Notes under the pieces: model-generated
Database searches by the model: none
Told to the model about the DNA's origin: nothing
What the model saw: only the letters and a program-made list of their open reading frames with translations
Shown here: piece by piece, positions 480 to 35,989 of the stretch
How the letters are laid out: each line of letters opens with the position of its first letter
Position numbering within the stretch: the stretch's first letter is position 1
Assembly (NCBI GenBank): GCA_031382605.1
Contig: JANMYZ010000511.1
Location: 1 to 35,989 of the forward strand
Direction of reading: 5' to 3'
From: Planctomycetota bacterium
GTDB taxonomy: Bacteria; Planctomycetota; UBA11346
Length of the DNA stretch: 35,989 bases
Translations under genes and position numbers: made by a program

Positions 480-527
480 CCTTTGCGCTGCTTTGCGGCA
501 AAAGGGTTCTCTATGCTTTTTTCTAGG
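480..527 (-). mobile_element. Truncated fragment (A-end only) of the family-A MITE-like element, inverted
   Basis: cctttgcgct-gctttgcggcaaaagggttctctatgcttttttctagg aligns to the reverse complement of the A-end of the copies at 32159 and 33198, with a 7-nt gap. The other half of the element is absent. Confidence 0.6.
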
Positions 528-1887: not shown

Positions 1888-2110
1888 CCTAGAAAACGCA
1901 GTAAAGAACCATTTTACCGCTATACCCCGTTGGGGCACCCAGCCGCTAAGAGCGCAATACCCTGTTGGGGCACTTAGGACTTACAGCACAATCAAGCTTC
2001 ACCTGTTTACTGAAGCCATTGATCATCTCAATTTTGATTTAAACCTTTGCTTTTCTTAGCGTCTTTGCGCCTTCGCGGTGGAAGTATGAATTCCTACTAC
2101 GGTTTTTAGG
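1888..2110 (+). mobile_element. Family-A MITE-like palindromic element, long variant
   Basis: Starts cctagaaaacgcagtaaagaacc and ends gaattcctactacggtttttagg (imperfect terminal inverted repeats). It begins 1 nt after TGA at 1884-1886. It carries a duplicated ccc(c/t)gttggggcac module that the short copies lack. Confidence 0.85.
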
Positions 2111-6045: not shown

Positions 6046-6513
6046 ATGAAAGGTCTTTATCCCGGCTCATTCGATCCACCGCATGTTGGTCATCTCGATG
6101 TGATCCGGCGGGCAGCGGCACAGGTTGATCACTTGATCGTCGCCGTCGCGCTCAATCCCGATAAAAAGCCGCTGCTGAGCGCTGATCAGCGCGTCGCCTT
6201 ATTGACCACGTTGTGCGCTGAACTTGGAAATGTCACCGTGGTGACCTATCACGGCGCCACGGTGATTTTTGCCAAAGCCCAGGGCTGCACCGTGCTGTTG
6301 CGCGGCCTACGCAACGCGACTGATCTTGAGGCTGAATTTGCGATGGCGCAGATCAACCGCGCTTATGGCATCGACACGTTATTTTTGCTCGCCGACGCCG
6401 CGCAACAACATCTGAGTTCACGTTTAGTCAAACAGGTCGCAGCAGCAGGTCTATCGCTCAACGCTCTGGTGCCACCAGCCGTGGCAACCGTCCTTGCCCG
6501 TCAATTCGCCTGA
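6046..6513 (+). CDS. coaD: Phosphopantetheine adenylyltransferase
   Basis: MKGLYPGSFDPPHVGHLDVIRRA (the nucleotidyltransferase H-x-G-H motif), LLRGLRNATDLEAEFAMAQINR and HLSSRLVKQV. I used the internal ATG at 6046 rather than the ORF-track start at 5920. Confidence 0.93.
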   Translation: MKGLYPGSFDPPHVGHLDVIRRAAAQVDHLIVAVALNPDKKPLLSADQRVALLTTLCAELGNVTVVTYHGATVIFAKAQGCTVLLRGLRNATDLEAEFAMAQINRAYGIDTLFLLADAAQQHLSSRLVKQVAAAGLSLNALVPPAVATVLARQFA

Positions 6514-16805: not shown

Positions 16806-17159
16806 ATGCTAAAAATCTACACCTACAAAAGCTGCTCCACCTGCCGCAAGGCGGTCGCTCATCTCACCCGAGCGGGCAAGTCATTCGCTGAAGTGCCGAT
16901 TCGTGAAACGCCGCCGACGGTGGACGAACTCAAGCGCATGCTCACCGCGCTGGGTGGCGACATGAAGGCGTTGTTCAATCGCAGCGGCCAGGATTACCGC
17001 GCATTGAACCTCAAAGATAAACTTCCAACTATGAGCGAAGCCGAGGCGCTGAAGTTACTCAGCACCAACGGCAATTTAGTCCGCCGTCCATTCGCCTTCA
17101 TCGGCCGCAACGGGATCGTGGGATACGATGAAGTGGCGTGGGACGCTCAGTTGAAGTGA
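16806..17159 (+). CDS. ArsC/Spx/YffB-family thioredoxin-fold protein
   Basis: MLKIYTYKSCSTCRKA (CxxC near the N-terminus) and LVRRPF near the C-terminus. 117 aa. Confidence 0.87.
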   Translation: MLKIYTYKSCSTCRKAVAHLTRAGKSFAEVPIRETPPTVDELKRMLTALGGDMKALFNRSGQDYRALNLKDKLPTMSEAEALKLLSTNGNLVRRPFAFIGRNGIVGYDEVAWDAQLK

Positions 17160-17160
17160 T

Positions 17161-17337
17161 CCTAGAAAAAACAGTAGAGAACCATTTTACCGCTAAGCCG
17201 CAAAGAGCGCAAAGGACTTGCAGCAAAATTAAGCTTCACCTATTTGGTGAGGCCACTGCTCATTTAGATTTTGATTCGCACCTTTGCGTCTTTGCGCCTT
17301 TGCGGTGGAAGTTTTAATTCCTACTGCGGTTTCTAGG
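17161..17337 (+). mobile_element. Family-A MITE-like palindromic element, short variant
   Basis: Runs from cctagaaaaaacagtagagaacc to taattcctactgcggtttctagg. It begins 1 nt after TGA at 17157-17159. The flanks are gtgat (17156-17160) and gtgaa (17338-17342). Confidence 0.85.
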
Positions 17338-17349
17338 GTGAACATGACT

Positions 17350-19357: not shown

Positions 19358-19425
19358 GTGGACACACCATATACCGACGAGTGGTTTCTGCGCGAGGTAG
19401 GGATTCCCTCGCGCTGTGCGATTAG

Positions 19426-19859
19426 CCTAAAAACGCAGTAGAGAATCATTTTACCGCAATACCCCGTTTGGGCACTTAGCCGCCAAGAGCGCAAAGGACT
19501 TACAGCAAAAAATAAGAGGCTCTTCAGTGTTTCGTGTGGGTTCAATCTCATTGGACAGCCAAAGAAGAAAACATCGAACAGGAGACGCGGAGACGCAGAG
19601 ATCGGAGGAGGGTAAGATGCTTGCCGGAGAGAATATGCCTTTCACTCCTCTTACCTCCGCGTCTCCGCGCCTCCTGTTCGATTTTCTTCCCGCTTTGATG
19701 AGCCCCAAGGACGGAGAAAAGACCCACACTGAACGACGCAGAGCCAAATAAGACTCATCTGTTTAGTGAAGCCCTGATCATACGAAATTGAATTCAAAAT
19801 CCTGACTTTCCTCTGCCTCTTTGCGACTTTGCGGTGGAATTTTGAATTCCTACTGCCGC
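19426..19859 (+). mobile_element. Family-A MITE-like element interrupted by a nested second element; B-end terminus degenerate
   Basis: The A-end is cctaaaaacgcagtagagaatcattttaccgc. The B-half (19754-19859) matches the copy at 33198. The terminal gtttagg is missing, and the element ends 8 nt from the minus-strand TGA at 19868-19870. Confidence 0.85.
19518..19745. mobile_element. Family-B MITE-like element (228 bp) nested inside a family-A copy
   Basis: Flanked by a perfect 8-bp direct duplication aaataaga (19510-19517 and 19746-19753). Its ends are ggctcttcagtg...cgacgcagagcc (imperfect inverted repeats). It has a long internal palindrome, gaagaaaacatcgaacaggagacgcggagacgcagag paired with cctccgcgtctccgcgcctcctgttcgattttcttc. 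Confidence 0.85.
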
Positions 19860-19867
19860 CACAATGA

Positions 19868-22156
19868 TCAGTGCGGGAAATCCGTTCCTTTGGAAACTTC
19901 GTTCAGCGCCTGCCAAAGGGCTTCGAATTGATCCCGCGCTTGCCCACCGAGGGTATCTGTTAGCGGCGTGGTGACGCCATCGGGTGAAAACTTGGGCATG
20001 CGCGTGGTTGGATCAAAGCTCAACGGATTGAGCATCCAACGATGGTAATAATCTTTTTGCAGGCGCTGATTGGCATAGCCCAGGTTGACGCCAGGGGCTT
20101 CAAACACCGCTACCGCAGGCGCGGCACCAACGCCATGGCATTGGATACAATTGAATCCGCCATCACCACCGAGCAACTTGTGACCATCTTCAGCGCCAGG
20201 TCCAGGTGATGGTGGATCTGCCGGAGTTACGGGCGGCAAACCGTGCGACATCGCCACGCCTTGCCCCAACAAATCCGCGCCCGCCGGAAATGCTGGCATG
20301 CGTAAATTCAGCCATGGTCGCGTGCGATAGGGAAGTTGTCCGCTAACGAATTTGGCAAGCCATTCCGGACGCAACTTATCACCACTCAGGGTCAAGGATG
20401 GAGCTGGATTCACCGCCGCAGCACCGCCATTTTCTCCGTGGTCAGCGCTTACTGGCGGTTCAGGCGGCAAGGTCGCCAATAATTTCTCAATCGTCGTGCT
20501 CATGCCAGAAATCACCGACAAGTTATTATCGCGTTGATGGCAAGCGTTGCAGCGCTGTGCTGCGATGTGACGCTCGGCAAACTCAACGGTGTCGCGGGTA
20601 AGCAGGGCTTTGTGATTGGTTTTAACAAAGCCACGGAGAGCCAAAACTTGATCTTTGCTAAAGCCGAAATCCGGCGCGCGGCCACGGGCCTTGTCGTCCG
20701 TCGCAAGACAACCATTCGCGCGATTCTGTGCCAGGTCGGCTAATTTGTTGCCGATCACTGCCGGTATGTCGCCCATTTGGTGGCACGATGCGCAGCCTGC
20801 CCCAGCCATCAAAATCTTGCCAATGTTCGCGTCACCGCCGCTGATCTTCTTTGGTTCTTCGCCGCCGTTTTTCAGCACGTACGCCGCCAGCGCGTTCGCT
20901 TCGGCTTCGTCAAAACCAAACTTCGGCATCTTGATCCACGCGTAATGTTTGGCCGGTTCGCGTAAAAAGGCCACCAACGCGGCGGGCTTCCATTTGGCCT
21001 GCGCATGCGTCAGCGGAATATGCGCCGGAGTATCACCGTTCGCCAAGTGACAGGATGCGCAGGCAAGTTTGGCAAACAAATGGCCACCACGGGCGAGCGT
21101 GGCTTCATCAGATTGAAAAGTATCGACTTGAGGAGTAGCGGCATCCGCTTTGCCCAAGGTCGCCAGATATGCCGCCATCGAAGCGGCTTCGCCATCAAGA
21201 TCGGCTTCGGATTTTCCGTCAGCGACTAACAGCTTGGGCATGCTGGCATGCGCACGCAGGGCTTTCGGATCGCGGATCCAGGCCGCCATCCAACCGTGAT
21301 TCAGGCGCGCGCCGACCTCACGCAAGTCAGGAGCGTCGATGGCCAATTCGGGCATGCCGTTGGCCGTGGCCGGATCAGCCGCGTGGCATTTGGTACAGCG
21401 CATGGTGGCGACCATTTCGCGACCTTGGCGCAACTTGGTAGCAGCGCGCATTTCTTTGGTGCCGGTATTGTGCGTGAGCAACGTGAGCGGCACAGGCTCA
21501 ACGGGAATTTCATCCGTTGCCCAAAACAACCGCAGACGAGCGTCTCCCTCTGCCGGGCTTTTGTAGGCCAAAGAAAGCGCATTCGCACCTTTGTTGAGTT
21601 TTATTTTCCCAGGCTTTCCTGCCGCTAAATCAGGACCCGTCATTTCCAAGACCACGGTTCCATTCACCGTGAAGGTCAACGAACCGCTGCCTTCGGCGGT
21701 GAACGTTACTTTGTCCCACACATCTTTATTGATGAATCCTTCAAACGTCGCGGTGAACGGGCCTGCCGCAACAAATGGTGTGGGCGCGGTGCCGGCTGGA
21801 ACATACAGCGCCAGCGCGCGTGCAGTGCGTTGGTCGACGTCACCACCAGCTTGTGACTGAACGATCATGGTGAGACCAGATTCGATCACCACGGCGGGTA
21901 GCTCTGGTGGCTTGGGTGGAATCGTCGGAGCGACGATCACCTCTGGAATCACGGGCTTCACGTCGGTGGTTGGCGGCTGAGCAACCGGCAGCGGTTGAAC
22001 TGGCTTACCGCCATCAACCACCACCGGCGCGGAAACCAGCGCTGGTCGTGGCCAAAACAATAACGTGGCATTACCCGCCACCACCAACGCGACCAACGCG
22101 ATGCTCAGTGGCAGATTCAATGGCGGACGATGGTCGGAAGAGGTCGGCTTGGTCAC
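19868..22156 (-). CDS. Membrane-anchored multiheme c-type cytochrome (five CxxCH) with Pro-rich linker and beta-sandwich (PA14-like) domain
   Basis: GTG start with aggag 6 nt upstream. N-terminal TM helix. Heme motifs are CTKCH, CASCH, CASCH, CNACH and CIQCH. Confidence 0.85.
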   Translation of the reverse strand: MTKPTSSDHRPPLNLPLSIALVALVVAGNATLLFWPRPALVSAPVVVDGGKPVQPLPVAQPPTTDVKPVIPEVIVAPTIPPKPPELPAVVIESGLTMIVQSQAGGDVDQRTARALALYVPAGTAPTPFVAAGPFTATFEGFINKDVWDKVTFTAEGSGSLTFTVNGTVVLEMTGPDLAAGKPGKIKLNKGANALSLAYKSPAEGDARLRLFWATDEIPVEPVPLTLLTHNTGTKEMRAATKLRQGREMVATMRCTKCHAADPATANGMPELAIDAPDLREVGARLNHGWMAAWIRDPKALRAHASMPKLLVADGKSEADLDGEAASMAAYLATLGKADAATPQVDTFQSDEATLARGGHLFAKLACASCHLANGDTPAHIPLTHAQAKWKPAALVAFLREPAKHYAWIKMPKFGFDEAEANALAAYVLKNGGEEPKKISGGDANIGKILMAGAGCASCHQMGDIPAVIGNKLADLAQNRANGCLATDDKARGRAPDFGFSKDQVLALRGFVKTNHKALLTRDTVEFAERHIAAQRCNACHQRDNNLSVISGMSTTIEKLLATLPPEPPVSADHGENGGAAAVNPAPSLTLSGDKLRPEWLAKFVSGQLPYRTRPWLNLRMPAFPAGADLLGQGVAMSHGLPPVTPADPPSPGPGAEDGHKLLGGDGGFNCIQCHGVGAAPAVAVFEAPGVNLGYANQRLQKDYYHRWMLNPLSFDPTTRMPKFSPDGVTTPLTDTLGGQARDQFEALWQALNEVSKGTDFPH

Positions 22157-24735: not shown

Positions 24736-24770
24736 CTGAAAAAACGCAGGAGAGAACCATTTTACCGCAA
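24736..24770 (+). mobile_element. Solo A-end fragment of the family-A element
   Basis: ctgaaaaaacgcaggagagaaccattttaccgcaa matches the first ~35 nt of the full copies, and the remainder is absent. It lies in the divergent intergenic region between the two paralogs. Confidence 0.5.
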
Positions 24771-24936
24771 CTGTTTTAGCGGTTACCGCGTGAAACCACA
24801 GTGCTCATCAACTTTTTTATCGTGTCACGGTATCATTGCTTGCTCACACTTTCCATTGACTTGATTGCCGCTCACAAAGATTGAATCCACAGTCCGCGCC
24901 TCAATCAAACCCATCAGTTACCAGTCCGAGGATTCT

Positions 24937-27162
24937 ATGTCATTCAAAGCTTATTGTGCTTATTGTGCCGTTGCGCTTACTCTTTTTACCAGCTCGCTCA
25001 TTCTTTGCGCCGAGGATAAAGCCGCTAAACAACCTTATCGTCAAATGGATTACGGCCCGAGTTTGAATTGGACGTACCAAGTCGCTGGTGATCACATCGT
25101 TTACAAAGGAATCGCCGTTCAAGTGGACGATGCAGCTGGTGGTATCGGCAAAGGTCATGCCTGGATGGTTTTTGATCACGACACGCTTTCGATGGCGGCC
25201 GCGTGGGTCACGCCAGAAGGATCGGACAAGGCACCGTTTATTGACTGGAAGGGTGTGGCCTTCGATAGCTCACACAGCAGCCATCCTTTCATTGCTGGTA
25301 AAACCGTTTTCGTCAATCGCCCAGGCCCTGGATATGCGTACCCTGCTAACGGCTCATTTGATGACCCGCGTTATGTCAGTCCTGTGGATCACAAAATGTA
25401 TGGTCCAATTCCTCGCGAATGGGCACATTTCCAGGGACTTTATCGTTCGGAAAATAAAGTCGTCATTGCTTATACTGTGGGGAAAACGTCAGTCCTTGAG
25501 TTGCCTGGCTATGATCGTTCATCCAGTATCTTCTCTCGTACTTTTTATATCGAAAAAAACGTCAAGCCATTGATCTTGCGCGTCGCGCCAGAAACGACGG
25601 CGGTGACAATTTCCGGTTTAGCTAGCTCTTCATTGAAAAAAAATAGCGGCTCATGGTTCCTCAATATACCGGCTTCAACCAAACCATTACGCTTTAAACT
25701 TATGCTCAGCGATGTTGCGCCGGCCGCCGCGGCCGTGAAAGACCAAGAAAAAATTGAGGAAATCGAACGGTTGTGTAAGGGCGGAAAGAGTGTCTGGACT
25801 GAGACGGTCACCACGACCATCGCCAAAGTCGAGAGCGGCCATGGCCTAACTTCTGAAACGTTGACGTTGCCCGACAATAACCCATGGAAATCATGGATTC
25901 GTACGGGTGGATTTGACTTTTTCGCCGATGGCAAGCGCGCGGCCGTGTGCACCTGGAGCGGAGACGTTTGGATGGTTAGTGGTGTTGACGGAGCCGTCGG
26001 CGCAGAACTTAAATGGAAACGCGTTGCCTCTGGTTTATTTCAAGCGCTTGGGGTTAAAATTGTCAACGACAAGATTTACGTTTCATGCCGCGATCAAATC
26101 GTGCGCTTAAATGATGTGAACGGCGACGGCGAAACTGACTTTTATGAGAACTTTAACAACGACCATCAGGTAACCGAGCACTTCCATGAATTTGCCATGG
26201 GACTGCAAGCCGACAAACAGGGTAATTTTTACTACGCTAAATCCGCTCGTCATGCTTTGCCGGGGCTTATTCCGCAACACGGCACGCTCATGCGCGTTTC
26301 GGCAGATGGAATGAAAAGTACCATCGTCGCCACCGGTTTTAGAGCGGCCAATGGCGTGTGCGTCAATGATGACGGCACCTTTTATGTCACCGATCAAGAG
26401 GGTCATTGGACGCCGAAGAACCGCATCAACTTGGTCAAAGAGGGTGGTTTTTATGGCAACATGAATACCTTGCTGCCCAAAGAACAGACTTCAGAAGATA
26501 GCGCGATGAACCAACCGCTAGTGTGGATAACCAACAACTGTGATCGTTCGCCTGGGGAACTCGTCAACGTTAAGAGTTCTCCTTGGGGCGACCTCAATGG
26601 AAAACTTCTCAACGTGTCGTATGGAACCGGACAAATCTTTTTAGTTTTGAAAGAAAGCGTTGGTCGCATGCAACAAGGCGGAGTCGTTCCGCTACCGCTA
26701 CGCTTTCCTACCGGCATTATGCGTGGCCGTTTCCACGCCAACGGTGATTTCTATGCCTGTGGTTTGGTTGGTTGGTCATCAAATACCAGCAAACCCGGTG
26801 GCTTCTACCGCATTAAATTGACCGATCCCCTTGATGTTCCCGTGAGCTTATCCGCAACCAAAAAAGGAATTATCGTCGGCTTCGCTCAAACGCTTGATAA
26901 GGAAACTGCGACGAGTACGGACGCTTACGTTATAAAAGCCTGGGACCTCAAACGTAGCGCGAATTACGGTTCCAACCACATCAACGAACATGCTTTAGAA
27001 ATCAGCGGAGTTGACCTCCTGCCAGATGGCAAGTCCGTGCTTATCAAAGCCGCCAACCTTGCGCCAACCTGGGGTATGTCGATTAAAATTCGCATCAAGA
27101 CTGCTGACGGCAAAGCCGTTGCGTGCGAGATCAATAATTCAATTTTCGCTTTGAAAGAATAA
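24937..27162 (+). CDS. Paralog of 22270..24642: secreted beta-propeller dehydrogenase-like protein, AT-richer
   Basis: The ATG at 24937 (gagga upstream) gives the signal-like MSFKAYCAYCAVALTLFTSSLILCAEDK. The ORF track starts at the TTG at 24865. It is collinear with the paralog, for example DVNGDGETDFYENFNND...FHEFAMGL and GDVWMVSG versus GDVWVISG. Confidence 0.82.
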   Translation: MSFKAYCAYCAVALTLFTSSLILCAEDKAAKQPYRQMDYGPSLNWTYQVAGDHIVYKGIAVQVDDAAGGIGKGHAWMVFDHDTLSMAAAWVTPEGSDKAPFIDWKGVAFDSSHSSHPFIAGKTVFVNRPGPGYAYPANGSFDDPRYVSPVDHKMYGPIPREWAHFQGLYRSENKVVIAYTVGKTSVLELPGYDRSSSIFSRTFYIEKNVKPLILRVAPETTAVTISGLASSSLKKNSGSWFLNIPASTKPLRFKLMLSDVAPAAAAVKDQEKIEEIERLCKGGKSVWTETVTTTIAKVESGHGLTSETLTLPDNNPWKSWIRTGGFDFFADGKRAAVCTWSGDVWMVSGVDGAVGAELKWKRVASGLFQALGVKIVNDKIYVSCRDQIVRLNDVNGDGETDFYENFNNDHQVTEHFHEFAMGLQADKQGNFYYAKSARHALPGLIPQHGTLMRVSADGMKSTIVATGFRAANGVCVNDDGTFYVTDQEGHWTPKNRINLVKEGGFYGNMNTLLPKEQTSEDSAMNQPLVWITNNCDRSPGELVNVKSSPWGDLNGKLLNVSYGTGQIFLVLKESVGRMQQGGVVPLPLRFPTGIMRGRFHANGDFYACGLVGWSSNTSKPGGFYRIKLTDPLDVPVSLSATKKGIIVGFAQTLDKETATSTDAYVIKAWDLKRSANYGSNHINEHALEISGVDLLPDGKSVLIKAANLAPTWGMSIKIRIKTADGKAVACEINNSIFALKE

Positions 27163-27167
27163 AGGAT

Positions 27168-27344
27168 AAATAAAGGACGGCGCGCCGGGCAGGCCGGCTA
27201 AGAGTTGGGGCTGCAAGACCATCACCCGTTTTCCCGGTGGATGGTCGGCAGCGGAAGTTGTCACTCGGCCTAGTGGTCACGATAAAAGACGCGACCATAG
27301 AGAGCGTCATCACATTGACTTCGCTCTAGAAAGGTGGCGAGACA
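27168..27344 (+). repeat. 177-bp direct repeat, copy A
   Basis: Identical to 30121..30297 except at 27175 (g/t) and 27259 (t/c). Starts 6 nt after the stop of the upstream gene. Confidence 0.95.
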
Positions 27345-27481: not shown

Positions 27482-30055
27482 ATGAATTTTATTAAACTTA
27501 TCCTCTTGGCTTTAGTAGCAAGTGCTCTTTGGGCTGTGGGTGTGCCGAGCGCTTACGGAGAGACCGTCAGCCTGGTCTCGGTCGGATCAGATGGCATGCT
27601 TAAATATGGGCTCTACGCCAACCAGGGGCAGTCCAATGTCGTGAACCGACTGCCGGATTTCTCCCGCGCAGGCTATCAGGGCGGCGGTGTTCCAATTCCG
27701 TTCGTGCCCGCAGTGATCACCGTGTCTCCTGGGCCGGGCGACAATAGGATTCTAATTCAAAACGCCATCGACGCGGTTTCCTTGAGAGCCTTGGAGGCAA
27801 ACGGATTTCGCGGTGCCGTGCTGTTGAAAGCGGGAACTTATGAGGTTGGCAGCGCGCTGATCATCAATGCTAGCGGTGTGGTGTTGCGTGGTGAAGGGTC
27901 GCAAGCTGTCGGCGGAACAAGGATTGTCCTTACGGCAACTCAGTCTGGAAATCTCATCGAGGCTAGAAAAAGTGTTACTTTAATAGAAGTCGTAGAAACG
28001 CGCAGGCCGATTAGCCAAAGTTACGTTCCCGTCGGGGCCATATCGTTTACCGTGAATTCGGCGGCCAACTATCGTGTTGGTGATAAGATTATAGTGCATA
28101 GAAAAACCAATGATAATTGGATCACAGATCTAAAAATGAACGACTTTGGCTGGACAGCGAGTAACTATCAAGGACGCTATCGTCGAGTTATTACCGCCAT
28201 CACTGGGGACACGATTTCCATCGATGCGCCGATTGTTCAAGTCATCGAGGATAAGTACGGTGGAGGCGACATCTACCAGTACACTAAGTCGACATTATTT
28301 GAAAATGTAGGCATTGAAGCCTTGCGCCTTGAATCGACTTATGTCAGTGGCGAAGATGATAAACACGGAAAATTTGCCTGTGTGTTAGAGGGCGTAGAGA
28401 ATGGTTGGGTGAGACAGGTTACCGCCGTGCATTTTTCAAATACCTGCGTCAGCATCAATAACGCTAGTCATCAGATTACCATTGAAGATTGCGCGCAACT
28501 TGACCCGAAGGGTCCCATAGTAGGCGGCTGGAGGTACTCCTTCAATTTGGACGATTGTTCATACGTATTAACGCAACGCTGCTACGCCGAATCCGGGAGG
28601 CATGATTATGTCAGCGGTAGTCAAACGCCTGGGCCGAACGCGTTTGTAGATTGTGTCGCACATGACACCAAGAGTGATAGTGGGCCGCACCATCGGTATT
28701 CTACCGGGCAAATTTACGACAACATCAACTGCGGAGAGTTGAATGTCCAGAACCGTAGAGGTTCTGGGAGTGGCCACGGTTGGGCAGGTGCTCAAATCCT
28801 CTTCTGGAATTGTAAGGGTAATTCGATCTGCGACGCGCCGTTAGGCGCCATGAACTGGTCGGTGGGTTTTGACGGACAGCACAGTGAAAGCTCTTTCTCT
28901 CCAGACGAGCCCGATGGCATATGGCAATCCCACAACACCCGGGTCGCGCCTCGCTCACTTTACCAGGCGCAACTCAAGGAACGCATGGGGAAAACGGCCT
29001 TGCGCAACGTAATCCTGCCCATGCAAGCCGTGGGTACGATCTGGCCAAGCCTAGCTAGTTGGGCTGGTAACGGACTCTTCGGTGATCAAGTTATCGTTTG
29101 GGAAGACGATGCGGTCGTGTCACCGCCAAACGTGAAAACCGTTTATGGTACTGTGCGGAATCTACAAATGCTTGATAGTGGTATCGTTTGTTCGTGGACG
29201 AAAGTGTCAGGACCGGGCACGGTCTTATTTGCAGCTGCCACATCTTTAAGGACAACGGCTATATTTTCTAGCGCTGGCACCTACGTGCTGCGTCTGGTCG
29301 CCAGTGGTGGAACGCGGACTGTCATTGTTGATGTGTCCATAACCGCGTCGGGGGCACCCGTGAATGTAGCGCCACAGGTGAATGCTGGCGCTGATAAATC
29401 ACTGACATTACCAGCGTCGGCAAGCTTAGTCGGCACCGCGAGTGATGATGGCTTGCCAAGTGGCTCAACGTTGACGACGATGTGGTCAAAAGTGAGCGGC
29501 CCAGGCACAGTGACCTTTGCCAATGCGAGTGCAAAATCGACCACAGCTACGTTCTCGGGGGCTGGTACTTATGTGCTGCGCTTGACGGCCAGTGATGGCA
29601 CGCTTCCGTCTACCGATGACATGTCCGTAACGGTAATCGAGTCTGGCGGCGGCGTCACGGCGCCACCTAAACCAGCGGCGCCAACTACGTCAGGCGATGG
29701 AACCGCGACTCCAACCATATCGGGCGATACGACCGCAGGAGCAACCGTGCATATCTTTATAGATGGAACGGAAGTCGACACTGTCATCGCCGGTTCAGAT
29801 GGGAAATGGACCTATCCGATAACCGGTTTGCCTGCTGGCACGCACACGATCACGGTCACGTCTCAAAATGCTGGGGGCACATCTGACCTCAGCAGTCCAA
29901 CGACCATCACTGTTGTCGCTACCGGCGTTAGCACACCGCCCGCTAGTGACAAAGGCGGCAGCCGCTGCGGATTGGGCGGGTTATCGGCGAGTTTATTTAT
30001 GCTGTTTTTCGCCTTTGTGATATTTACGCAAAGAGTTGTCCAGAATAACAGATGA
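27482..30055 (+). CDS. Secreted or cell-surface right-handed beta-helix (pectate-lyase-superfamily-like) protein with two PKD-like repeats, an Ig-like domain and a C-terminal Gly-rich/TM/basic tail
   Basis: Signal peptide MNFIKLILLALVASALWAVG. N-terminal block ILIQNAIDAV...GAVLLKAGTYEVGSALIINASGVVLRGEG. Tandem repeats W(T/S)KVSGPGTV.F..A....T.A.FS.AGTYVLRL.AS. Tail GGSRCGLGGLSASLFMLFFAFVIFTQRVVQNNR. Confidence 0.85.
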   Translation: MNFIKLILLALVASALWAVGVPSAYGETVSLVSVGSDGMLKYGLYANQGQSNVVNRLPDFSRAGYQGGGVPIPFVPAVITVSPGPGDNRILIQNAIDAVSLRALEANGFRGAVLLKAGTYEVGSALIINASGVVLRGEGSQAVGGTRIVLTATQSGNLIEARKSVTLIEVVETRRPISQSYVPVGAISFTVNSAANYRVGDKIIVHRKTNDNWITDLKMNDFGWTASNYQGRYRRVITAITGDTISIDAPIVQVIEDKYGGGDIYQYTKSTLFENVGIEALRLESTYVSGEDDKHGKFACVLEGVENGWVRQVTAVHFSNTCVSINNASHQITIEDCAQLDPKGPIVGGWRYSFNLDDCSYVLTQRCYAESGRHDYVSGSQTPGPNAFVDCVAHDTKSDSGPHHRYSTGQIYDNINCGELNVQNRRGSGSGHGWAGAQILFWNCKGNSICDAPLGAMNWSVGFDGQHSESSFSPDEPDGIWQSHNTRVAPRSLYQAQLKERMGKTALRNVILPMQAVGTIWPSLASWAGNGLFGDQVIVWEDDAVVSPPNVKTVYGTVRNLQMLDSGIVCSWTKVSGPGTVLFAAATSLRTTAIFSSAGTYVLRLVASGGTRTVIVDVSITASGAPVNVAPQVNAGADKSLTLPASASLVGTASDDGLPSGSTLTTMWSKVSGPGTVTFANASAKSTTATFSGAGTYVLRLTASDGTLPSTDDMSVTVIESGGGVTAPPKPAAPTTSGDGTATPTISGDTTAGATVHIFIDGTEVDTVIAGSDGKWTYPITGLPAGTHTITVTSQNAGGTSDLSSPTTITVVATGVSTPPASDKGGSRCGLGGLSASLFMLFFAFVIFTQRVVQNNR

Positions 30056-30120
30056 TTGGTGGAAAAATCGACATGAATAATCGCGGTTAGGGCGGGAGCT
30101 GGAGCTGTGGGCCAAAGAAA

Positions 30121-30297
30121 AAATAAATGACGGCGCGCCGGGCAGGCCGGCTAAGAGTTGGGGCTGCAAGACCATCACCCGTTTTCCCGGTGGATGGTCG
30201 GCAGCGGAAGTCGTCACTCGGCCTAGTGGTCACGATAAAAGACGCGACCATAGAGAGCGTCATCACATTGACTTCGCTCTAGAAAGGTGGCGAGACA
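30121..30297 (+). repeat. 177-bp direct repeat, copy B
   Basis: 175/177 identical to 27168..27344, at an offset of exactly 2953 bp. Confidence 0.95.
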
Positions 30298-30480
30298 TTC
30301 TTTGTTTTCTGCGTCCTCCATTATTTAAAAAACTGGGTTGTTTGGGTACGCTGCGGACGCTATGGCCATGGGCCAACGAGCAGCAGCGCCGGATGCACAT
30401 CAGATCGCAGTCGCACCAGGTGGCGGCGATTGCACCAGGGAATCGTGCCACCATCGTCCTCGCCCACGAATGGACATCCT

Positions 30481-32157
30481 ATGAGCAAAAAATCGCAAAA
30501 AACCGAGCGCAAAAAGAAGAAACGCCAAGAGCGCATTCGGCAGGAAAAACATCAGCGTCACTTGACGCCCGCTGTGCCGTCGTTCTGGGACACCGATGTG
30601 CCCGTGCGGAAAGACCCCCGCCGGTCGATGGACATCGAGCGTTGGTTACGTGGCCATGCGCAGCGCACCGGACAGTGGGTGGTGGGCATGCCGGAATTGG
30701 CGCAGGCCCTGAATGCAAGTAAGTCGAATCCGGTGGTGGGTCCTGGAGAGCTTGCCGGCGCGCCAGCCGTGGAACGCGCGCAGGAACTGGCGTTCCAGTG
30801 CATGGAGACAGACGATGACGATGCAGCGGCGATCCTGGCGCGGGCCGCGTTAGAGATTGATGCAGCTAACCTGGATGCACGGCGGACGTTGATCATCTAT
30901 GAGGCCGCTGGCGATCCGGATGCCTGCTACCGTCGGCTGCAGGGTCTGTTAGATGAGGCCGGCTCGACGCTCGATCAGGCGCTGGTCGCCGCGACGACAG
31001 GGCAGCTCAGTCGTCTGCTGAGTGCTCGGCCATTCCTGCGGGTGCTGCAAGGCCTGATGATTAAGGCGGCGCAGCAGCACGATCTGGAGCGCCTGGCGCC
31101 CGTGATGAAGAGCTACGTCGGCTTCGATCAAGCGAGTTGCTGGGTGGCGGTCGGGCGCGCGTTGAAGCTCCTGAATCAGGATGAACGTTGGGATTGCGCG
31201 GCACGACTGCGGGACTTGGTGATCGCTGACGGTGTCAGTCGATGGATGCTCGATGGCCTGTTGGCACTGCGCGGGGGCGATCGTCGCGCCGCCGGCGATC
31301 AGATTCGCCAAGCGGTTGTGCGGAATCCACTTTTACGTCAGCAATTGCAGGATGCTGGCAGCAGCCCGATCTCTGAGCTGGGGTACGAGGCAACCACCCT
31401 CGCCAACGGCCTTGAACCGCTGATCAATGATCTGCCGGATTTCCCCGACTGGCTGGCCGATGGCATGCCATGGATGGACCAAGCGGCGATCGACCGTGCG
31501 CTGAAGGCCTATGCTAAGCCGCTGTCAAACTTGCTGGCTCTGGGCCAATCGGCCATCGACGAGATCGACTACGTTCAGAGATATGGCATCGGGCCGCAGC
31601 ACCGCGAACCACTCGAACAAATGCTGAAGGATCCGGTCTTCCAGCAGGTGGGCCCGACCGATCCGGAGGTCTTCGCGACGATGCATGCGTGGCGTGCGCT
31701 CGGCCAGATTGGCGACCAACGCAGTCTGCCGGTATTGTTTTCCGTATTGTTGGACCCGGATGCCGGCGACTGGGACTATGAGGAACTGCCGGAAATCATC
31801 GGGCGTTTCGCTGCCGCCGCCCTGCCGAGCACGCTCAAAGAACACCGCGTACGCCTCGCCGACCCAGATGGAAATGAGACCCTGCTGTGGGCGTTACAAC
31901 GCATCCTGGCGCTCATCGCCAAACGTGACCCGGAGTCGCGCGGCGCAGTGATCGACTGCCTCCGCGCCGTGGTGACTGACCCGCAGATGCACCTCATCAC
32001 CACGCGAGCATCGGCGATCGCCAGCCTGAGCGAGTTGCGCGCGGTTGAATGCTTGCCCTGCATCGAACAAGCCTACGCCGACGGAATGGTCGACATCGGC
32101 TACGTCGGTCTGTCGTCCGTTCGCGAGCAGATGGCCAAGGGAGAGGTCGACGGTTGA
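30481..32157 (+). CDS. GC-rich hypothetical protein with polybasic N-terminus and C-terminal HEAT/PBS-lyase-like repeats (DUF1186-like impression)
   Basis: I chose the ATG at 30481 (MSKKSQKTERKKKKRQERIRQEKHQRH) over the TTG at 30430. C-terminal repeats include WRALGQIGDQRSLPVLFSVLLDPD and ASAIASLSELRAVECLPCIEQAY. Confidence 0.72.
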   Translation: MSKKSQKTERKKKKRQERIRQEKHQRHLTPAVPSFWDTDVPVRKDPRRSMDIERWLRGHAQRTGQWVVGMPELAQALNASKSNPVVGPGELAGAPAVERAQELAFQCMETDDDDAAAILARAALEIDAANLDARRTLIIYEAAGDPDACYRRLQGLLDEAGSTLDQALVAATTGQLSRLLSARPFLRVLQGLMIKAAQQHDLERLAPVMKSYVGFDQASCWVAVGRALKLLNQDERWDCAARLRDLVIADGVSRWMLDGLLALRGGDRRAAGDQIRQAVVRNPLLRQQLQDAGSSPISELGYEATTLANGLEPLINDLPDFPDWLADGMPWMDQAAIDRALKAYAKPLSNLLALGQSAIDEIDYVQRYGIGPQHREPLEQMLKDPVFQQVGPTDPEVFATMHAWRALGQIGDQRSLPVLFSVLLDPDAGDWDYEELPEIIGRFAAAALPSTLKEHRVRLADPDGNETLLWALQRILALIAKRDPESRGAVIDCLRAVVTDPQMHLITTRASAIASLSELRAVECLPCIEQAYADGMVDIGYVGLSSVREQMAKGEVDG

Positions 32158-32158
32158 A

Positions 32159-32345
32159 CCTAAAAAACGCAGTAGAGAACCATTTTACCGCTAAGCCGCA
32201 AAGAGCGCAAAGGACTTACAGCAAAATTAAGCTTTACCCGTTTGGTGAAGCCATTGATCATCTCAATTTTGATTCAAACCTTTGCTTTTCTTGGCGTCTT
32301 TGCGCCTTAGCGGTGGAAGTTTGAATTCCTATTGCGGTTTTTAGG
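32159..32345 (+). mobile_element. Family-A MITE-like palindromic element, short variant (reference copy)
   Basis: TIRs are cctaaaaaacgcagtag and ctattgcggtttttagg, with about 15 of the first 17 positions complementary. Perfect 5-bp duplication ttgaa at 32154-32158 and 32346-32350, and the left copy contains the TGA stop at 32155-32157. Confidence 0.9.
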
Positions 32346-32490
32346 TTGAAGTCCCCGGAGGCCTGACTGATGACAACGATGACCGTCAGACGACCGGCCA
32401 TTTGGGCGCGTATCGACCGGACCATAACCATGGACGGACAACCACGGACGAGTTTGGCCGACACGATTCCGCACGTCGGCTGGAATCTGA

Positions 32491-32578: not shown

Positions 32579-33040
32579 ATGTCAACGTTCAGCGCTTGGA
32601 CCTCAGGAATAATGGCGTTTTTTCTGCTGGCGTTGATGGGCTGTCAGGCTCATACGCCACCAGATGACGTTGTCGCAACGCGGCTGCGGGTGGCAGTGAC
32701 CGCAACGTGCGCGGCCATGGGTTTGCCGATTGAAGAGCGTCCCACGGGCCGGGCGCTGGATGATCAGGTGGGATTATTGGCGATGCGATTATCGGCAGAA
32801 CGCGTGAACTCCATCACCAGCGGAGCCCTTGATCGGCAGGTGGTGCTCGATGCTTTTCAGGCCGCCTTGAAACGGCGCGCGGCGCGGCAATCAACCAGTG
32901 AGCCGCCACGTTTACTGGCTTTTTTGCTCGACAAAGTCCCGCAGTGGACCGTCGACCAGACGCTGTTGGCGTCCGCTTTACTGGCGCAGTTTGAGCATGA
33001 GGCCCAGTTGGTTCCGAAGTCGCCAGGGCTCATTCGCTGA
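32579..33040 (+). CDS. Hypothetical lipoprotein
   Basis: MSTFSAWTSGIMAFFLLALMGC has a hydrophobic signal and the lipobox LMGC. The remainder is helical and Ala/Leu-rich. Confidence 0.6.
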   Translation: MSTFSAWTSGIMAFFLLALMGCQAHTPPDDVVATRLRVAVTATCAAMGLPIEERPTGRALDDQVGLLAMRLSAERVNSITSGALDRQVVLDAFQAALKRRAARQSTSEPPRLLAFLLDKVPQWTVDQTLLASALLAQFEHEAQLVPKSPGLIR

Positions 33041-33197
33041 CGCCGTCCGGTGCGGCCATGCAGGTGGCGACCCACGAATTGACGCAGATTTCGCTGCGTA
33101 GCGGCGCTAGCTTGGAGGCGCTGACGGTGATCCGTACGGTGACGGATCGTTATGCGAAAAATAATATCTGGACAGCCGAGCATCGTGAACGTTTGAG

Positions 33198-33385
33198 CCT
33201 AAAAAACGCAGTAGAGAACCATTTTACCGCAAAGCAGCAAAGAGCGCAAAGGACTTACATCAAAAACAAGATTCATCTGTTTGGTGAAGTCCTTGATCAT
33301 ACGAAATTGAGTTCAAAACCCTGCCTTTCCTTTGTGTCTTTGCGTCTTTGCGTTGGAAATTTGAATTCCTACTGCCGCGTTTAGG
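33198..33385 (+). mobile_element. Family-A MITE-like element, variant B-half
   Basis: Perfect 5-bp duplication ttgag at 33193-33197 and 33386-33390. 138/139 identical to the reverse complement of 35851..35989. Confidence 0.9.
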
Positions 33386-33677
33386 TTGAGTTCGAGGATA
33401 TTCCTGAACATCCACTCGACGCGGATACGCGTCGTTGCGTACAACGCGTTGACCGGTCGATAGCCATTGAGTTTCCAGATGCTCTGGTAGCAGAAATAGC
33501 GGGCGAAAACCGGACGAAAGTTTGGATCGTTCTCAGAAGCAGCATTCTTGTGGGCGGCGGAAAGGCCATTGCCGCCAACACCTTGGTGATTATTTTCTGC
33601 GCCGCGTTCATTCCGCCGGCGATAAATACGAACGACAAAAGTTGTATTTTGAAGCCGCGTTTCCATGCAGGGTACCC

Positions 33678-35849
33678 ATGATCATTCTCCCGCTCCGCCC
33701 CGAGACCAACGAGCGGTACGCTCCCATCGGCACGATCGCCATGATGCTGGTCAACGTGCTCGTCCACGTCATCTGGGGGCGCGGTGATCCTGTCGCGCTG
33801 GAGCCGTACCTGCTCGACTTTCAGTCCGTCCAGCCGCTGCAGTGGCTGACCTCGGCGTTCCTGCACGCCGATTGGATGCATCTGATCGGTAACCTCGTCT
33901 TTCTCTACGTCTTCGGGGCCTTGGTTGAAGATTTCCTTGGGCGCTGGTTCGTGCCAGCTTACTTGTTTCTGGCCCTCGCCAGCGGCGCGCTGGAGCAGGG
34001 CCTGTGCCTGCTCGAAAACAGGGAGGGACACGCGCTGGGTGCCAGCTCGGCGATCTATGGCTTGATCGCGATGGCGACCCTGTGGGCGCCGCGCACCCAC
34101 ATCTCGACCTTCGTCTGGTTCATCGTCATCCGCCGACCGCAGGTGATGCCGATCCGCGTGATGTGGCTGGCGGGGTACTTTATGGTGCTGCAGATCATCA
34201 CGGTTTTGCTCACGAATGGCGAGCCCAGCTCGGAGTTTCTGCACGCCTGCGGCATCGCTGCCGGTCTTGTGCTGGGCTTCCTCTGCCTGCACCAGCGTTG
34301 GATCGATACTGATGGCGAAGACGTCCTGGCCACCGGTCCCAAGCGCGGCGCCAAGTCGGCCATCGTCGTGCCCACCGTGACGTGGGATGAACAGGCCGCG
34401 CGGCTCGACGCTGCTGCCGCCGCTGGGCAATGCCGCGTCGCGCTGGCCGCCTACGAGGTTTTGCGCCGCGAATATCCGGCGCGCCTGCCGAGCATGTCGG
34501 TGCTCGAACGCCTGATGGAGCTGTGCGAGGAGTCGCTGGATTTCCACCGTGCTGCCGCGATCGCCGATCGCGCCCTGGCCGCTGGCCCGGTCAGCGACGT
34601 CCTGCTGCTGCGCTACGCGCGCGTCAGCGGCGTGCACCAGGGCAATGTCGACGCCGGCCTGGCCATGGTCGCCACCATCGACGTGAATCAGCTGCCCGAG
34701 GACGTCCGTGGCGAACTGGCCCAGCTCAGCACTCGTCTGGAGCGGCGCCGCCGGCCTGGGGCGCCCATCACCACCCGGATCGCTCACATGCTGCTGGTGG
34801 TCTTGCTGTTGGGTGGCCTGGGTGCCCGGACATATGCAGAGGAGCAGAACGCGGCGGAACTGCACCCGCTCACTGGCCGCGTCGTGCTTGCGGGCGGTGC
34901 TGCGATCACGCTCACGCAGAGTTCCGTCTACGTCACCTGGAGCGACCTGAGCCAATTCCTGGCCCTGCCGCCGACACCGACACCGGCTGCGGGCGAGGAA
35001 CCGCTGGGCGTGATTTTTCCGGCGCAAGCCATCGAAGCGATGTACGAGCAGCGCGAGCGCAACGGTTCACCCGATGCGTGGCAACAGCGGTCGCAACAGG
35101 CCATAATGTGCCTCGGCGCCATCCAGGTGTTCTGGGCCGATGGCTGGATCGACTTGTCGCAGCCGCTGCCATCTGCCGCACAGTTGCTCGCCGATTTCCA
35201 GTTCCAAGCGCAGGTGATCAGCAACCGTCACCTGCTGGGACCTGGGGTCTCGCTCACCTACGATGGCTTCGGCCAGGAACCGGTGCTCAACGCCAGGGAC
35301 GGCACGCTCGCCTGGTCGATCCGCCTGCAGATCCTTGGCCAGGGCATACTCGCCGAGCACGCCCACCATTCTTGCCATCTTGGAGCCAGGGGCGTCCTGG
35401 CCCTGATCTGCGAAGACGTGGAGGTCTCGGACCCGTCCATCCGGCACCTGAAAACTGCCGACCTGATGCAGAAGGCTGCCAGCCAGATCAGCTGGGAACC
35501 GAAGAGCGGTTACACGACCACTCTGCCTGACGGCGTGGGCGAGCGCACCGGCGGCTTCCGACGATTAATGCAACCGCGCCTGACCTTCGGCCACGACACC
35601 GATGAGCTGGATTTTCACCGTGGTCTCGGCTTCGTCTGGATCGTGATCCTGCTGCCGTTGGGCGCCGTCCTGTTCCTCATCTGGCGCTGGGTCACCAAGA
35701 CCATGCAGCCGCCGGTTCGCACCAGCGCGGTGACGAGCAGTGCGGTGACCAGTGACGTCAACCGTTGTCCCGCCTGCGGCAGCCCCGTGACGGTGGCGAC
35801 GCCGCGCTGCGTGGCGTGCGGGACCAGCCTGATCCGGCGCTCCGGGTGA
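33678..35849 (+). CDS. Rhomboid-family intramembrane serine protease fused to a helical (TPR-like) segment, an extra TM, a ~250-aa DUF2167-like domain, a further TM and a C-terminal zinc ribbon
   Basis: I chose the ATG at 33678 (MIILPLRPE). Rhomboid motifs are HADWMHLIGNLVFLYVFG, the catalytic-Ser motif GASSAIYGLIAM and the catalytic-His helix HACGIAAGLVLG. The C-terminus has CPACGSPVTVATPRCVACG. Confidence 0.85.
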   Translation: MIILPLRPETNERYAPIGTIAMMLVNVLVHVIWGRGDPVALEPYLLDFQSVQPLQWLTSAFLHADWMHLIGNLVFLYVFGALVEDFLGRWFVPAYLFLALASGALEQGLCLLENREGHALGASSAIYGLIAMATLWAPRTHISTFVWFIVIRRPQVMPIRVMWLAGYFMVLQIITVLLTNGEPSSEFLHACGIAAGLVLGFLCLHQRWIDTDGEDVLATGPKRGAKSAIVVPTVTWDEQAARLDAAAAAGQCRVALAAYEVLRREYPARLPSMSVLERLMELCEESLDFHRAAAIADRALAAGPVSDVLLLRYARVSGVHQGNVDAGLAMVATIDVNQLPEDVRGELAQLSTRLERRRRPGAPITTRIAHMLLVVLLLGGLGARTYAEEQNAAELHPLTGRVVLAGGAAITLTQSSVYVTWSDLSQFLALPPTPTPAAGEEPLGVIFPAQAIEAMYEQRERNGSPDAWQQRSQQAIMCLGAIQVFWADGWIDLSQPLPSAAQLLADFQFQAQVISNRHLLGPGVSLTYDGFGQEPVLNARDGTLAWSIRLQILGQGILAEHAHHSCHLGARGVLALICEDVEVSDPSIRHLKTADLMQKAASQISWEPKSGYTTTLPDGVGERTGGFRRLMQPRLTFGHDTDELDFHRGLGFVWIVILLPLGAVLFLIWRWVTKTMQPPVRTSAVTSSAVTSDVNRCPACGSPVTVATPRCVACGTSLIRRSG

Positions 35850-35850
35850 T

Positions 35851-35989
35851 CCTAAACGCGGCAGTAGGAATTCAAATTTCCAACGCAAAGACGCAAAGAC
35901 ACAAAGGAAAGGCAGGGTTTTGAATTCAATTTCGTATGATCAAGGACTTCACCAAACAGATGAATCTTGTTTTTGATGTAAGTCCTTTG
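35851..35989 (-). mobile_element. Family-A MITE-like element, inverted orientation, cut by the window edge
   Basis: Begins 1 nt after TGA at 35847-35849 with the B-end cctaaacgcggcagtaggaattc. 138/139 identical to the reverse complement of the copy at 33198. Confidence 0.9.

Follow-up and report, generated by a model that had tools for sequence, protein, structure and literature searches.

Bacterial MITEs of the Correia/NEMIS, ERIC and RUP type mostly duplicate TA and are AT-rich (PMC2229807). In common with the element described here, these families are shorter than 250 bp, non-coding, multicopy and intergenic, possess terminal inverted repeats (TIRs) and target duplications, would form an end-to-end hairpin in the transcript, and occupy sites that are filled in some strains and empty in others. 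The present element differs from them in its 5-bp duplication with a T-S-A core, its CC...GG tips, its arms of about 60 nt and its landing on a stop codon in roughly every second copy. Repeats at gene ends are also known from pneumococci, in which BOX repeats overlap the extreme 3' ends of genes and encode the stop in 36 CDSs (PMC3049150). The BOX stop lies inside the repeat, whereas at the present element the gene itself supplies the stop, and the target duplication includes it. Neither this element family nor any stop-codon-duplicating MITE was found described in the literature.

Elements of the IS1380 family have 'CC' ends and generate repeats of 4-5 bp, and the CCTAR tips and 5-bp duplication of the present element are IS1380-like traits. 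The tip, CCTAG/CCTAA, is as in the left inverted repeat of ISEcp1, CCTAGATTCTACGT, and ISEcp1 with this repeat makes 5-bp direct repeats (PMC6061673). The repeats of ISEcp1, namely ACTCA, TAATA and TAAGA (PMC6061673), nevertheless differ from the N-T-S-A-N of the element. Neither an IS1380-type transposase nor a full-length element with CCTAR tips was found among the loci fetched and in the scans, and the link to IS1380 is a lead only. The IS1031 group of the IS5 family, PIF/Harbinger transposons and Tourist MITEs use a palindromic T-N-A target core (TNA or TWA), and such a core always reads TAA or TGA on one strand. Membership of the IS5/IS1031 or PIF/Harbinger groups is rejected, because these duplicate only 3 bp and have other tips, whereas the element duplicates 5 bp, with positions 1 and 5 matching. 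Among IS200/IS605 derivatives, ISDra2 inserts 3' of TTGAT, and the element likewise directly follows, on the 3' side, a pentanucleotide similar to TTGAT or GTGAT. IS200/IS605 elements, however, have no TIR, make no duplication and insert in a single orientation; the TIRs and duplications of the present element, either tip of which can face the TGA (5 versus 4 copies), rule out an IS200/IS605-derived palindromic element. REP/BIME sequences (palindromes of 20-40 bp that carry a GTAG or CGTC tag and make no duplication) are also set aside, since the element is about 187 bp long with 5-bp duplications and other tips.

The window, that is, the whole 35,989-nt stretch of DNA that was analysed, contains six copies of the element, 177-445 bp in size, and two remnants. 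The element is non-coding and about 187 bp long (177-223 bp in the usual copies), with tips of the form CCTAR...YTAGG and long, imperfect inverted arms of about 60 nt that pair from end to end. A conserved 18-mer occurs seven times where 0.02 occurrences are expected, which excludes chance. The copies, their flanks and the remnants are as follows.

480..527, minus strand: degenerate left-arm remnant; flank ATGGG, unlike the target motif
1888..2110, plus strand: copy A; left flank GTGAT (1883-1887), right flank CTTAC (2111-2115), mismatched
17161..17337, plus strand: copy B; flanks GTGAT (17156-17160) and GTGAA (17338-17342)
19426..19866, plus strand: copy C; flanks ATTAG (19421-19425) and ATCAG (19867-19871), 4/5 match
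24739..24770, plus strand: solo left-end remnant, within a divergent promoter region
32154..32158, plus strand: left duplication copy of D, TTGAA, containing the TGA stop (32155-32157) of ORF 30430..32157
32159..32345, plus strand: copy D; 187 bp, tips CCTAA...TTAGG
32346..32350, plus strand: right duplication copy of D, TTGAA, 5/5 match
33198..33385, plus strand: copy E; flanks TTGAG (33193-33197) and TTGAG (33386-33390)
35851..35989, minus strand: copy F; reversed, truncated by the contig end, 99% identical to E over 139 nt

Five of the six window copies (A, B, C, D and F) lie one base beyond a TGA that ends a called gene. The ORF upstream of D, 30430..32157, encodes 575 aa with a HEAT-repeat match and is called as 558 aa on L019. 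The stop in the left flank of A (GTGAT) belongs to a 410-aa gene, and that in the left flank of B to an ArsC-family gene; B sits between two convergent genes, and the intergenic region is only 8 nt long without the element. Next to the right tip of F stands GTGAT (35846-35850), and its TGA is the stop with which a rhomboid-domain gene closes at 35849. The right flank of C, ATCAG, holds the minus-strand TGA stop (19868-19870) of a 762-aa cytochrome c gene; C is 441 bp long, enlarged by a nested 228-bp element at 19518-19745, and its right tip has diverged, the last 7 nt being CACAATG instead of GTTTAGG. The ORFs ending at 1886, 17159, 32157 and 35849 agree with genes called independently on related contigs. 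Copy E lies away from any gene stop, 154 nt past the stop at 33040, which shows that the target motif is also used away from stop codons; the TGA at 33194, before E, terminates no ORF of 30 aa or more. The 153-aa ORF 32579..33040 gave no database record on look-up.

All coordinates that the first-pass annotation claimed for copies, flanks and TGAs check out, save for corrections to copies C and F. It counted five full copies preceded by TGA plus 1 nt, and the register of TGA, 1 nt and CCT is indeed present at all five sites (1884, 17157, 32155, 33194 and 35847), but the copy at 35851 is not full, because it is reversed and cut by the contig end. Its placement of copy C 8 nt from the minus-strand stop was mistaken: the empty alleles give 1 nt.

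The sample comprised 19 independent insertion loci, six in the window and 13 elsewhere, rather than a whole genome; related copies lie on contigs of several other assemblies and metagenomes. Eight of these loci were found via ORFs called across the element, a route that is biased against copies hugging a stop with their left side. The unbiased subset consists of 11 copies, and complete copies number 15. L027 was scored as a non-hugger, because its 116-aa "gene" appears to be an antisense shadow of a minus-strand N6-methylase (hsdM-like) gene. Pattern scans with conserved 20-21-mers, in genome and metagenome collections without the source genome, gave two real matches (L001 and L002) and four chance matches; a viral scan for the element tip gave six matches, all by chance, and plasmid BLAST gave none. 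No tRNA gene was found adjoining any copy, and the tRNA-like flank of L017 is no tRNA.

The target-site selection suggested by the first-pass annotation is real, as T at position -4 and A at position -2 are invariant in all 34 readable flanks of the 19 loci. Thirty of the 34 have G or C at the centre, and beyond the 5-mer no base is conserved (32 flanks). The target is N-T-S-A-N, near-palindromic, used on either strand and duplicated as 5 bp, with T and A obligatory. The proposed KTGAN target was correct in placing TGA within the duplicated target, but position 1 may also be A or C (ATGAT, ATGAA, CTGAT), and the gene-side flank is TAA in two copies (L001 and L024a). The direct 5-bp duplication also stands: it is perfect in eight of the 15 complete copies (D, E, L018a, L023, L025, L026a, L027 and L038), for which P is about 2e-11 by chance with T and A treated as fixed, and the empty alleles carry a single 5-mer. 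Flanks match at 4/5 positions in B, C and L001; those of A, L017, L024a and L024b are unmatched, yet retain the invariant T and A. Twenty-nine called ORFs run into other copies, and in 27 of these the codons of the two residues that precede LKNAVENHF read N-T-N-A-N-C. At a stop codon the duplicate consists of the last base of the final sense codon, the stop codon and 1 nt, so that the ORF is intact after insertion, as had been proposed. Because a TGA stop is itself an N-T-S-A-N site, about half of the copies lie on stop codons with the gene undamaged.

Comparison of filled and empty alleles, in strains that are 97.5-99.6% identical, gives evidence of mobility and identifies the owner of the TGA. 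Copy C is missing in L007 and L011 (strains 98.5-99.6% identical), in which the empty alleles carry exactly one ATCAA and fix the boundary of C at 19866. Copy A is missing in L029, in which 605 bp of other DNA, with no element, lies between the native stop (CGA TGA G) and CTTAC, itself an NTNAN site in this allele. Copy A has replaced these 605 bp, which explains the mismatch of its flanks, and the arrangement fits two insertions followed by recombination. The empty alleles of both C and A keep the TGA, which is therefore native to the gene and not part of the element. Copies D, E and F are present in all assemblies that cover them, and the contigs break inside F.

The strict stop-codon hugging described from the window holds there (five of six copies) but not in the wider sample, in which nine of 19 loci read stop, 1 nt, tip (A, B, C, D, F, L001, L018a, L023 and L024a), the left tip facing the gene in five and the right tip in four. 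In the unbiased subset, hugging is found in 8 of 11. Under a null model based on a crude greedy ORF annotation, 61 of 551 harmless NTNAN sites (11%) are in the stop + 1 nt register, and the excess is significant for all loci (P = 7.7e-5) and for the unbiased copies (P = 2.6e-6). In the first 20-30 nt past stops, the T-N-A of the stop itself makes up 44-50% of targets, and several insertions lie in intergenic regions that offer merely 1-4 candidate sites. By this arithmetic, the stop register results mostly from the target motif together with tolerated insertions just past genes. Within the 3' zone, 9 of 11 copies are in the stop register against an expected 36-50% (P = 0.0025-0.033), so that some preference for the stop as such may persist. 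Compared with non-huggers, huggers show lower similarity to their nearest relative (Mann-Whitney P = 0.018), similarity serving as a proxy for age; this trend is weak, as identity to the family consensus gives P = 0.22. The closely similar group E/F/L017/L025 hugs in one of four copies, and the most diverged copies all hug. In the window, the element occupies 5 of 19 TGA stops, roughly a quarter.

Taken together, the element is probably a so far undescribed MITE with a strict NTSAN target, whose survivorship in short intergenic regions concentrates the copies on stops. It has the TIRs, the fixed-length duplication, the small, multicopy, non-coding body and the insertion polymorphism of a MITE. 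A transposase acting in trans would cut N-T-(G/C)-A-N with a 5-bp stagger, and the five bases are duplicated. Mobilisation in trans is inferred, because the 45 loci, the pattern scans of genomes and metagenomes, the scan of viruses and the BLAST against plasmids yielded no autonomous partner with the same termini. No candidate transposase was found near any copy either; the transposase genes that did turn up are of the IS110 (L009) and ISL3 (L027) types, with unrelated ends. When the target consists of the last codon base, TGA and 1 nt, the left duplicate preserves the ORF and its stop, and the element begins one base later. The excess at stops probably arises from the shortness of the intergenic regions, in which a TGA or TAA stop would be a guaranteed T-N-A site at the only end of a gene where a 190-bp insertion does no harm. 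Insertions in promoters and 5' regions would be lost more often, and the survivors, the old ones above all, would accumulate on stops. The hairpin is likely to be a by-product of the inverted arms rather than a selected RNA structure. The transposon behaviour is tidy, yet not of a fundamentally new kind.

A transposase that senses more than the 5-bp motif, such as a DNA feature of termination sites or a bound host factor, and that prefers stop codons would also account for the sharp peak at exactly stop + 1 nt (8 of 11 unbiased copies versus the 11% null) and for the use of the stop register by 9 of the 11 copies within 30 nt past stops. The intergenic regions of A and D offer 13-14 NTNAN sites, of which these copies took the stop, and hugging recurs on contigs from different assemblies, at TAA as well as TGA. 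Such active targeting is nevertheless unlikely, since the flanks are unconserved outside the 5-mer, 10 of the 19 copies lie elsewhere, some adjoining gene starts (L026b, L027 and L025), and hugging marks the most diverged copies but just one of four in the closely similar group. A DNA transposase would, moreover, have no known means of reading a stop codon as such. The sharing of T and A by both flanks could in principle arise in another way, if TGAN were an extended terminal repeat of the element with no target duplication; the motif is palindromic, and T and A are invariant even in the four copies with unmatched flanks. The first-pass annotation had named this as the reading that would overturn its own, and it is scarcely credible now: the element-free alleles of C and A retain a single 5-mer and the TGA of the gene, which refutes an element-borne TGAN, and positions 1, 3 and 5 match as direct, not inverted, repeats in eight copies.

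Two further explanations assign a function to the element itself. Selection might keep the hairpin at gene ends, either as a terminator that works in both directions or to shield mRNA 3' ends, in line with the terminator or mRNA-stabiliser role that had been suggested at the outset. Copy D is predicted to fold as RNA into one long imperfect hairpin (-80.2 kcal/mol, z -7.75), with an A-run and a U-run from the tips framing the stem as in a bidirectional terminator; the 3' ends of genes are enriched for copies, the oldest copies belong to the huggers, and effects on mRNA are reported for Correia and ERIC elements (PMC2229807). The stem, however, shows no compensatory changes, as substitutions are one-sided and pair-breaking (covariation term +1.98), and hugger orientation is unbiased (five left-tip, four right-tip). 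L023 lies between long same-strand genes (PDDEXK nuclease and UvrD-type helicase domains) that are 24 nt apart without the element, and C occupies a 64-nt gap between two same-strand genes, two positions at which strong termination would have polar effects. The terminator scan makes no call at the element, Rfam has no family for it at the gathering score, and a 3'-end role does not need the 1-nt register. On these grounds an intrinsic terminator or structured RNA family is rejected, the suggested role is unsupported, and a domesticated 3'-end module seems improbable. Still less probable, by far, is a translationally coupled small ORF of about 56 aa, with an NTG start made by the target and overlapping the upstream stop (NTGA). 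Left-tip hugger junctions do read GTGA, TTGA or ATGA, in most copies the frame from the junction runs for 45-63 codons without a stop, even in the 75%-identical L018a, and nested 18-nt and 9-nt insertions keep the frame. Codon periodicity is nevertheless absent (31/28/31 variable columns per codon position), and pN/pS is 0.79 in this frame versus 0.75 and 0.88 in the other two; on these two measures the idea was rejected. The C-terminal third also changes frame between subfamilies, neither a Shine-Dalgarno sequence nor a Pfam match was seen, and right-tip huggers offer a frame of only 25-30 codons. No support was found for a terminator, structured-RNA or coding role of the element.

For a MITE with an NTSAN target, the target rule acts as a built-in safe harbour, in which doubling of the 5 bp around T-G-A leaves both the ORF and its stop untouched. 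The junction reads TGA-NCC-TAR, so that the tip supplies another stop in frame, and with the ORF preserved and the extra stop in place, the element can colonise very compact genomes at the ends of genes. The family accounts for contig breaks in these Planctomycetota assemblies, for local deletions and differences in gene content among strains, and for spurious 'hypothetical proteins', which number at least 31 and include two labelled apolipoprotein N-acyltransferase. If active targeting or a domesticated 3' module were true, the element would represent a novel route by which mobile DNA influences the 3' ends of mRNAs. It is doubtful that the transposase is truly stop-directed and the element a portable 3'-end hairpin module on about a quarter of TGA stops; were this so, the element would be not a passive survivor but a genome-wide, transposon-delivered layer of 3'-UTR structure.

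One element, detected by repeat finding, pattern matching and profile searching, is present in six copies (A-F) and two solo remnants in the window, a whole contig of 35,989 bp whose gene content looks planctomycete-like (families cytochrome c, DUF6797, PLD, rhomboid and ArsC):

Copy A, 1888-2110
Copy B, 17161-17337
Copy C, 19426-19866
Copy D, 32159-32345
Copy E, 33198-33385
Copy F, 35851 to the contig end, reversed
Solo remnant of the element, 24739-24770
Solo remnant of the element, 480-527

The element has the ends CCTAR...YTAGG and long, imperfect inverted arms, and its RNA is predicted to fold into a single long hairpin (-80.2 kcal/mol, z -7.75); comparison of the element with Rfam matched no family. 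It shows every testable feature of a miniature inverted-repeat transposable element (MITE) except an autonomous partner, which was not found in the fetched loci, the genome and metagenome pattern scans, a viral scan or plasmid BLAST.

In the genome and metagenome collections, pattern scans yielded only two real relatives (loci L001 and L002), and further copies were sought in a protein collection with a profile of the element's hypothetical translation. The profile search returned 31 spurious called ORFs, and look-up of some of these and of some window genes led to 13 further independent loci with DNA and to numerous strain variants of loci in the window. Discovery through an ORF that runs into the element from its left side selects against copies with a stop codon abutting that side, and an unbiased subset (n = 11) was therefore kept, comprising the six window copies, L001, L002, L018a, L024a and L026b. 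At least 31 "hypothetical proteins" (P0001-P0031) have been made from element copies by gene callers, two of which (P0002 and P0007) carry the JGI name apolipoprotein N-acyltransferase. Short-read assemblies break repeatedly inside copies, at contig ends of L010, L013, L016, L019-L021, L032, L033 and L037.

T at position -4 and A at -2 are present in all 34 readable flanks, with G or C between them in 30, and no conservation apart from this T-S-A core (S, G or C) was seen from -12 to -1. Similarly, in 27 of 29 called ORFs entering the element, the residues just before it encode N-T-N and then A-N-C. The flanks are perfect 5-bp direct repeats in D, E, L018a, L023, L025, L026a, L027 and L038 and match at four of five positions in B, C and L001 (chance probability about 2e-11, with T and A treated as fixed). 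Inverted repeats are ruled out, because positions 1 and 5 match directly, and not as complements, in E, L025 and L018a. From these flanks, the element inserts at N-T-S-A-N on either strand and duplicates all 5 bp. It represents a new family of MITEs that is strict for this target. The first-pass annotation had proposed a KTGAN target with a direct duplication; the 5-bp direct duplication holds, but the K at position 1 reflects chance within the window: ATGAT, ATGAA and CTGAT are found at other loci.

Literature searches turned up neither this family nor any MITE that systematically duplicates a stop codon as part of its target. The IS1031 group and PIF/Harbinger elements share the T-N-A target core, but they duplicate 3 bp rather than 5 bp. 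Pneumococcal BOX repeats also overlap stop codons, although there the repeat itself supplies the stop (PMC3049150), whereas here the stop is the gene's own. The IS1380 family resembles the element in its CCTAR tips and 5-bp duplications, as in ISEcp1 with its left repeat CCTAGATTCTACGT and 5-bp repeats; however, the repeats reported for ISEcp1 do not fit N-T-S-A-N (PMC6061673), so that a possible IS1380 link is only a lead.

The flank and stop coordinates of the first-pass annotation were all correct on re-checking, with one correction. The ORFs ending at 1886, 17159, 32157 and 35849 are independently called as genes on related contigs; no ORF of at least 30 aa ends at the TGA at 33194, beside copy E. 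Copy C had been said to end 8 nt from the minus-strand stop at 19868-19870, but alignment to other copies and to empty alleles shows that its final 7 nt are diverged (flanks ATTAG/ATCAG), and its insertion boundary is therefore also 1 nt from that stop. Five of the six window copies have this register of stop codon, 1 nt and element tip.

Copy C is absent from L007 and L011, assemblies 98.5-99.6% identical to the window, in which the site reads GGGATCAATGCGGG, compared with GCGATTAG, the element and ATCAGTGCGGG in the window. The cytochrome gene has the same terminal TGA in filled and empty alleles. Its last His codon supplies, as its third base, position 5 of the duplication; this codon is CAT in L007 and L011 but CAC in each of the two duplicates in the window. 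Copy A is absent from L029, where a 410-aa gene terminates CGA TGA G and 605 bp (2397-3001), harboring a small minus-strand gene (106 aa), separate this stop from CTTAC. In the window, copy A occupies the place of the 605 bp and has the same CTTAC as its right flank, which explains why its flanks are unmatched although both fit N-T-N-A-N. This arrangement likely arose when two inserted copies recombined with each other, a history that could also account for the unmatched flanks of L017, L024a and L024b. The element-free alleles of C and A thus assign TGAN to the gene and the target and refute the reading in which it is part of the element.

At the copy B locus of one metagenome strain (L009 10340-11373), the MITE is broken after ...GCGTCTTTGCGCCTT (near 10496) by an inserted element whose predicted product appears by eye to be IS110-family transposase-like (MNTAPEFIGIDVAKATL...); IS110-type elements are known to target repeated palindromes, and the MITE may therefore be such a target. 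Copy C holds a nested, unrelated 228-bp MITE-like element (19518-19745) with ISL3-like tips GGCTCT...AGAGCC, a 47-nt internal inverted repeat (19570-19685) and an 8-bp duplication, AAATAAGA, and in L027 an ISL3-type transposase fragment adjoins the element. An 18-nt insertion with a small palindrome, TACCCCGTTGGGGCAC, was found solely inside MITE copies, twice in A (1923-1938 and 1958-1973) and once each in C (19460-19475), L023 (5385-5400) and L038 (3021-3036), always at the repeated ...A|AG motif of an arm; it reads "YPVGAL" in the "protein" matches. A direct repeat of 184 nt, 98% identical and unrelated to the MITE (27161-27344 and 30114-30297), follows each of two neighboring large genes (24865..27162 and 27482..30055). 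The segment between a terminator-like hairpin after a 6PGD-like gene and TTATGAGCCTGACGC (104-543) varies between strains: the window has a 105-aa small ORF and the MITE remnant at 480-527, and L033 (702-1238) and L036 (1-503) have instead another ORF, of 62 aa, together with part of a phage integrase gene. The gene abutting copy L024a is a 70-aa minus-strand ORF (L024 6282-6494), BrnA/DUF4415-type antitoxin-like by eye (...RGRPRGNHKSRVTVRIDTDVVAWLKKSGNGYQTRLNGILRRAM...), over which the gene caller chose the opposite-strand ORF 6249..6500. Among 27 greedy-called window genes, stops are 19 TGA, 8 TAA and no TAG (TAG is scarce as well, at 2 of 69 stops, in the seven related loci used for the null model below), and five of the 19 TGA stops have a MITE copy.

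When element-end-to-stop distances and flanks were compared over 19 loci, stop enrichment and the 5-bp duplication were borne out, but the strict adjacency to stops seen in the window was found at only nine (A, B, C, D, F, L001, L018a, L023 and L024a), with TAA as the gene-side stop in L001 and L024a; in the unbiased subset the count was 8 of 11. As a null, elements were excised from seven loci, genes were crudely called, and N-T-N-A-N sites cutting no gene were collected, of which 61 of 551 (11%) were in the stop register. Compared with insertion spread evenly over harmless sites, the surplus at stops is genuine (P = 7.7e-5 with all loci and 2.6e-6 in the unbiased subset). Much of it is lost under a narrower null: of all target sites in the first 20-30 nt past a stop, 44-50% are the T-N-A of that stop. 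Several insertions also lie in intergenic regions too short to offer more than a few sites, with stop sites being 1 of 1 (C and L023), 2 of 4 (B) and 2 of 3 (L001).

Active targeting of stop codons is an unlikely, minority possibility. Within the 3' zone the stop was used by 9 of 11 copies (P = 0.011 to 0.033), a preference that is suggestive but not compelling. Similarity to the nearest relative is lower for stop-abutting copies than for the others (P = 0.018), the three most diverged copies all abut stops, and only one of the closely similar E, F, L017 and L025 does so. Survivorship fits this pattern better than targeting, in a small sample in which identity to the family consensus does not differ significantly (P = 0.22).

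The terminator or mRNA-stabilizer role suggested by the first-pass annotation, in which the element would be a domesticated 3'-end module, found no positive evidence and is likewise a minority reading of low probability. Arm substitutions are one-sided and pair-breaking, without compensatory changes (covariation term positive, 13 aligned copies), either tip can face the gene (5 versus 4), and the terminator scan did not flag the element. Moreover, L023 separates two long genes on the same strand, with PDDEXK nuclease and UvrD-type helicase domains, that would be just 24 nt apart if the element were absent, and C lies in a 64-nt gap between two same-strand genes, so that a strong terminator would be polar at both. 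A coupled small ORF starting from the duplicated NTG (stop overlap NTGA) was rejected, because codon periodicity is lacking and pN/pS (0.79) is like that of other frames. Read directly from sequence, TGA-NCC-TAR places a second in-frame stop two codons on.

The original observation is confirmed and its interpretation partly supported. Landing exactly on stop codons follows from the N-T-S-A-N motif, and the simplest account of the enrichment is that, in a compact genome, insertions are tolerated at the 3' ends of genes. Because copy A replaced a segment with a 106-aa gene, the family is also associated with gene loss between strains.
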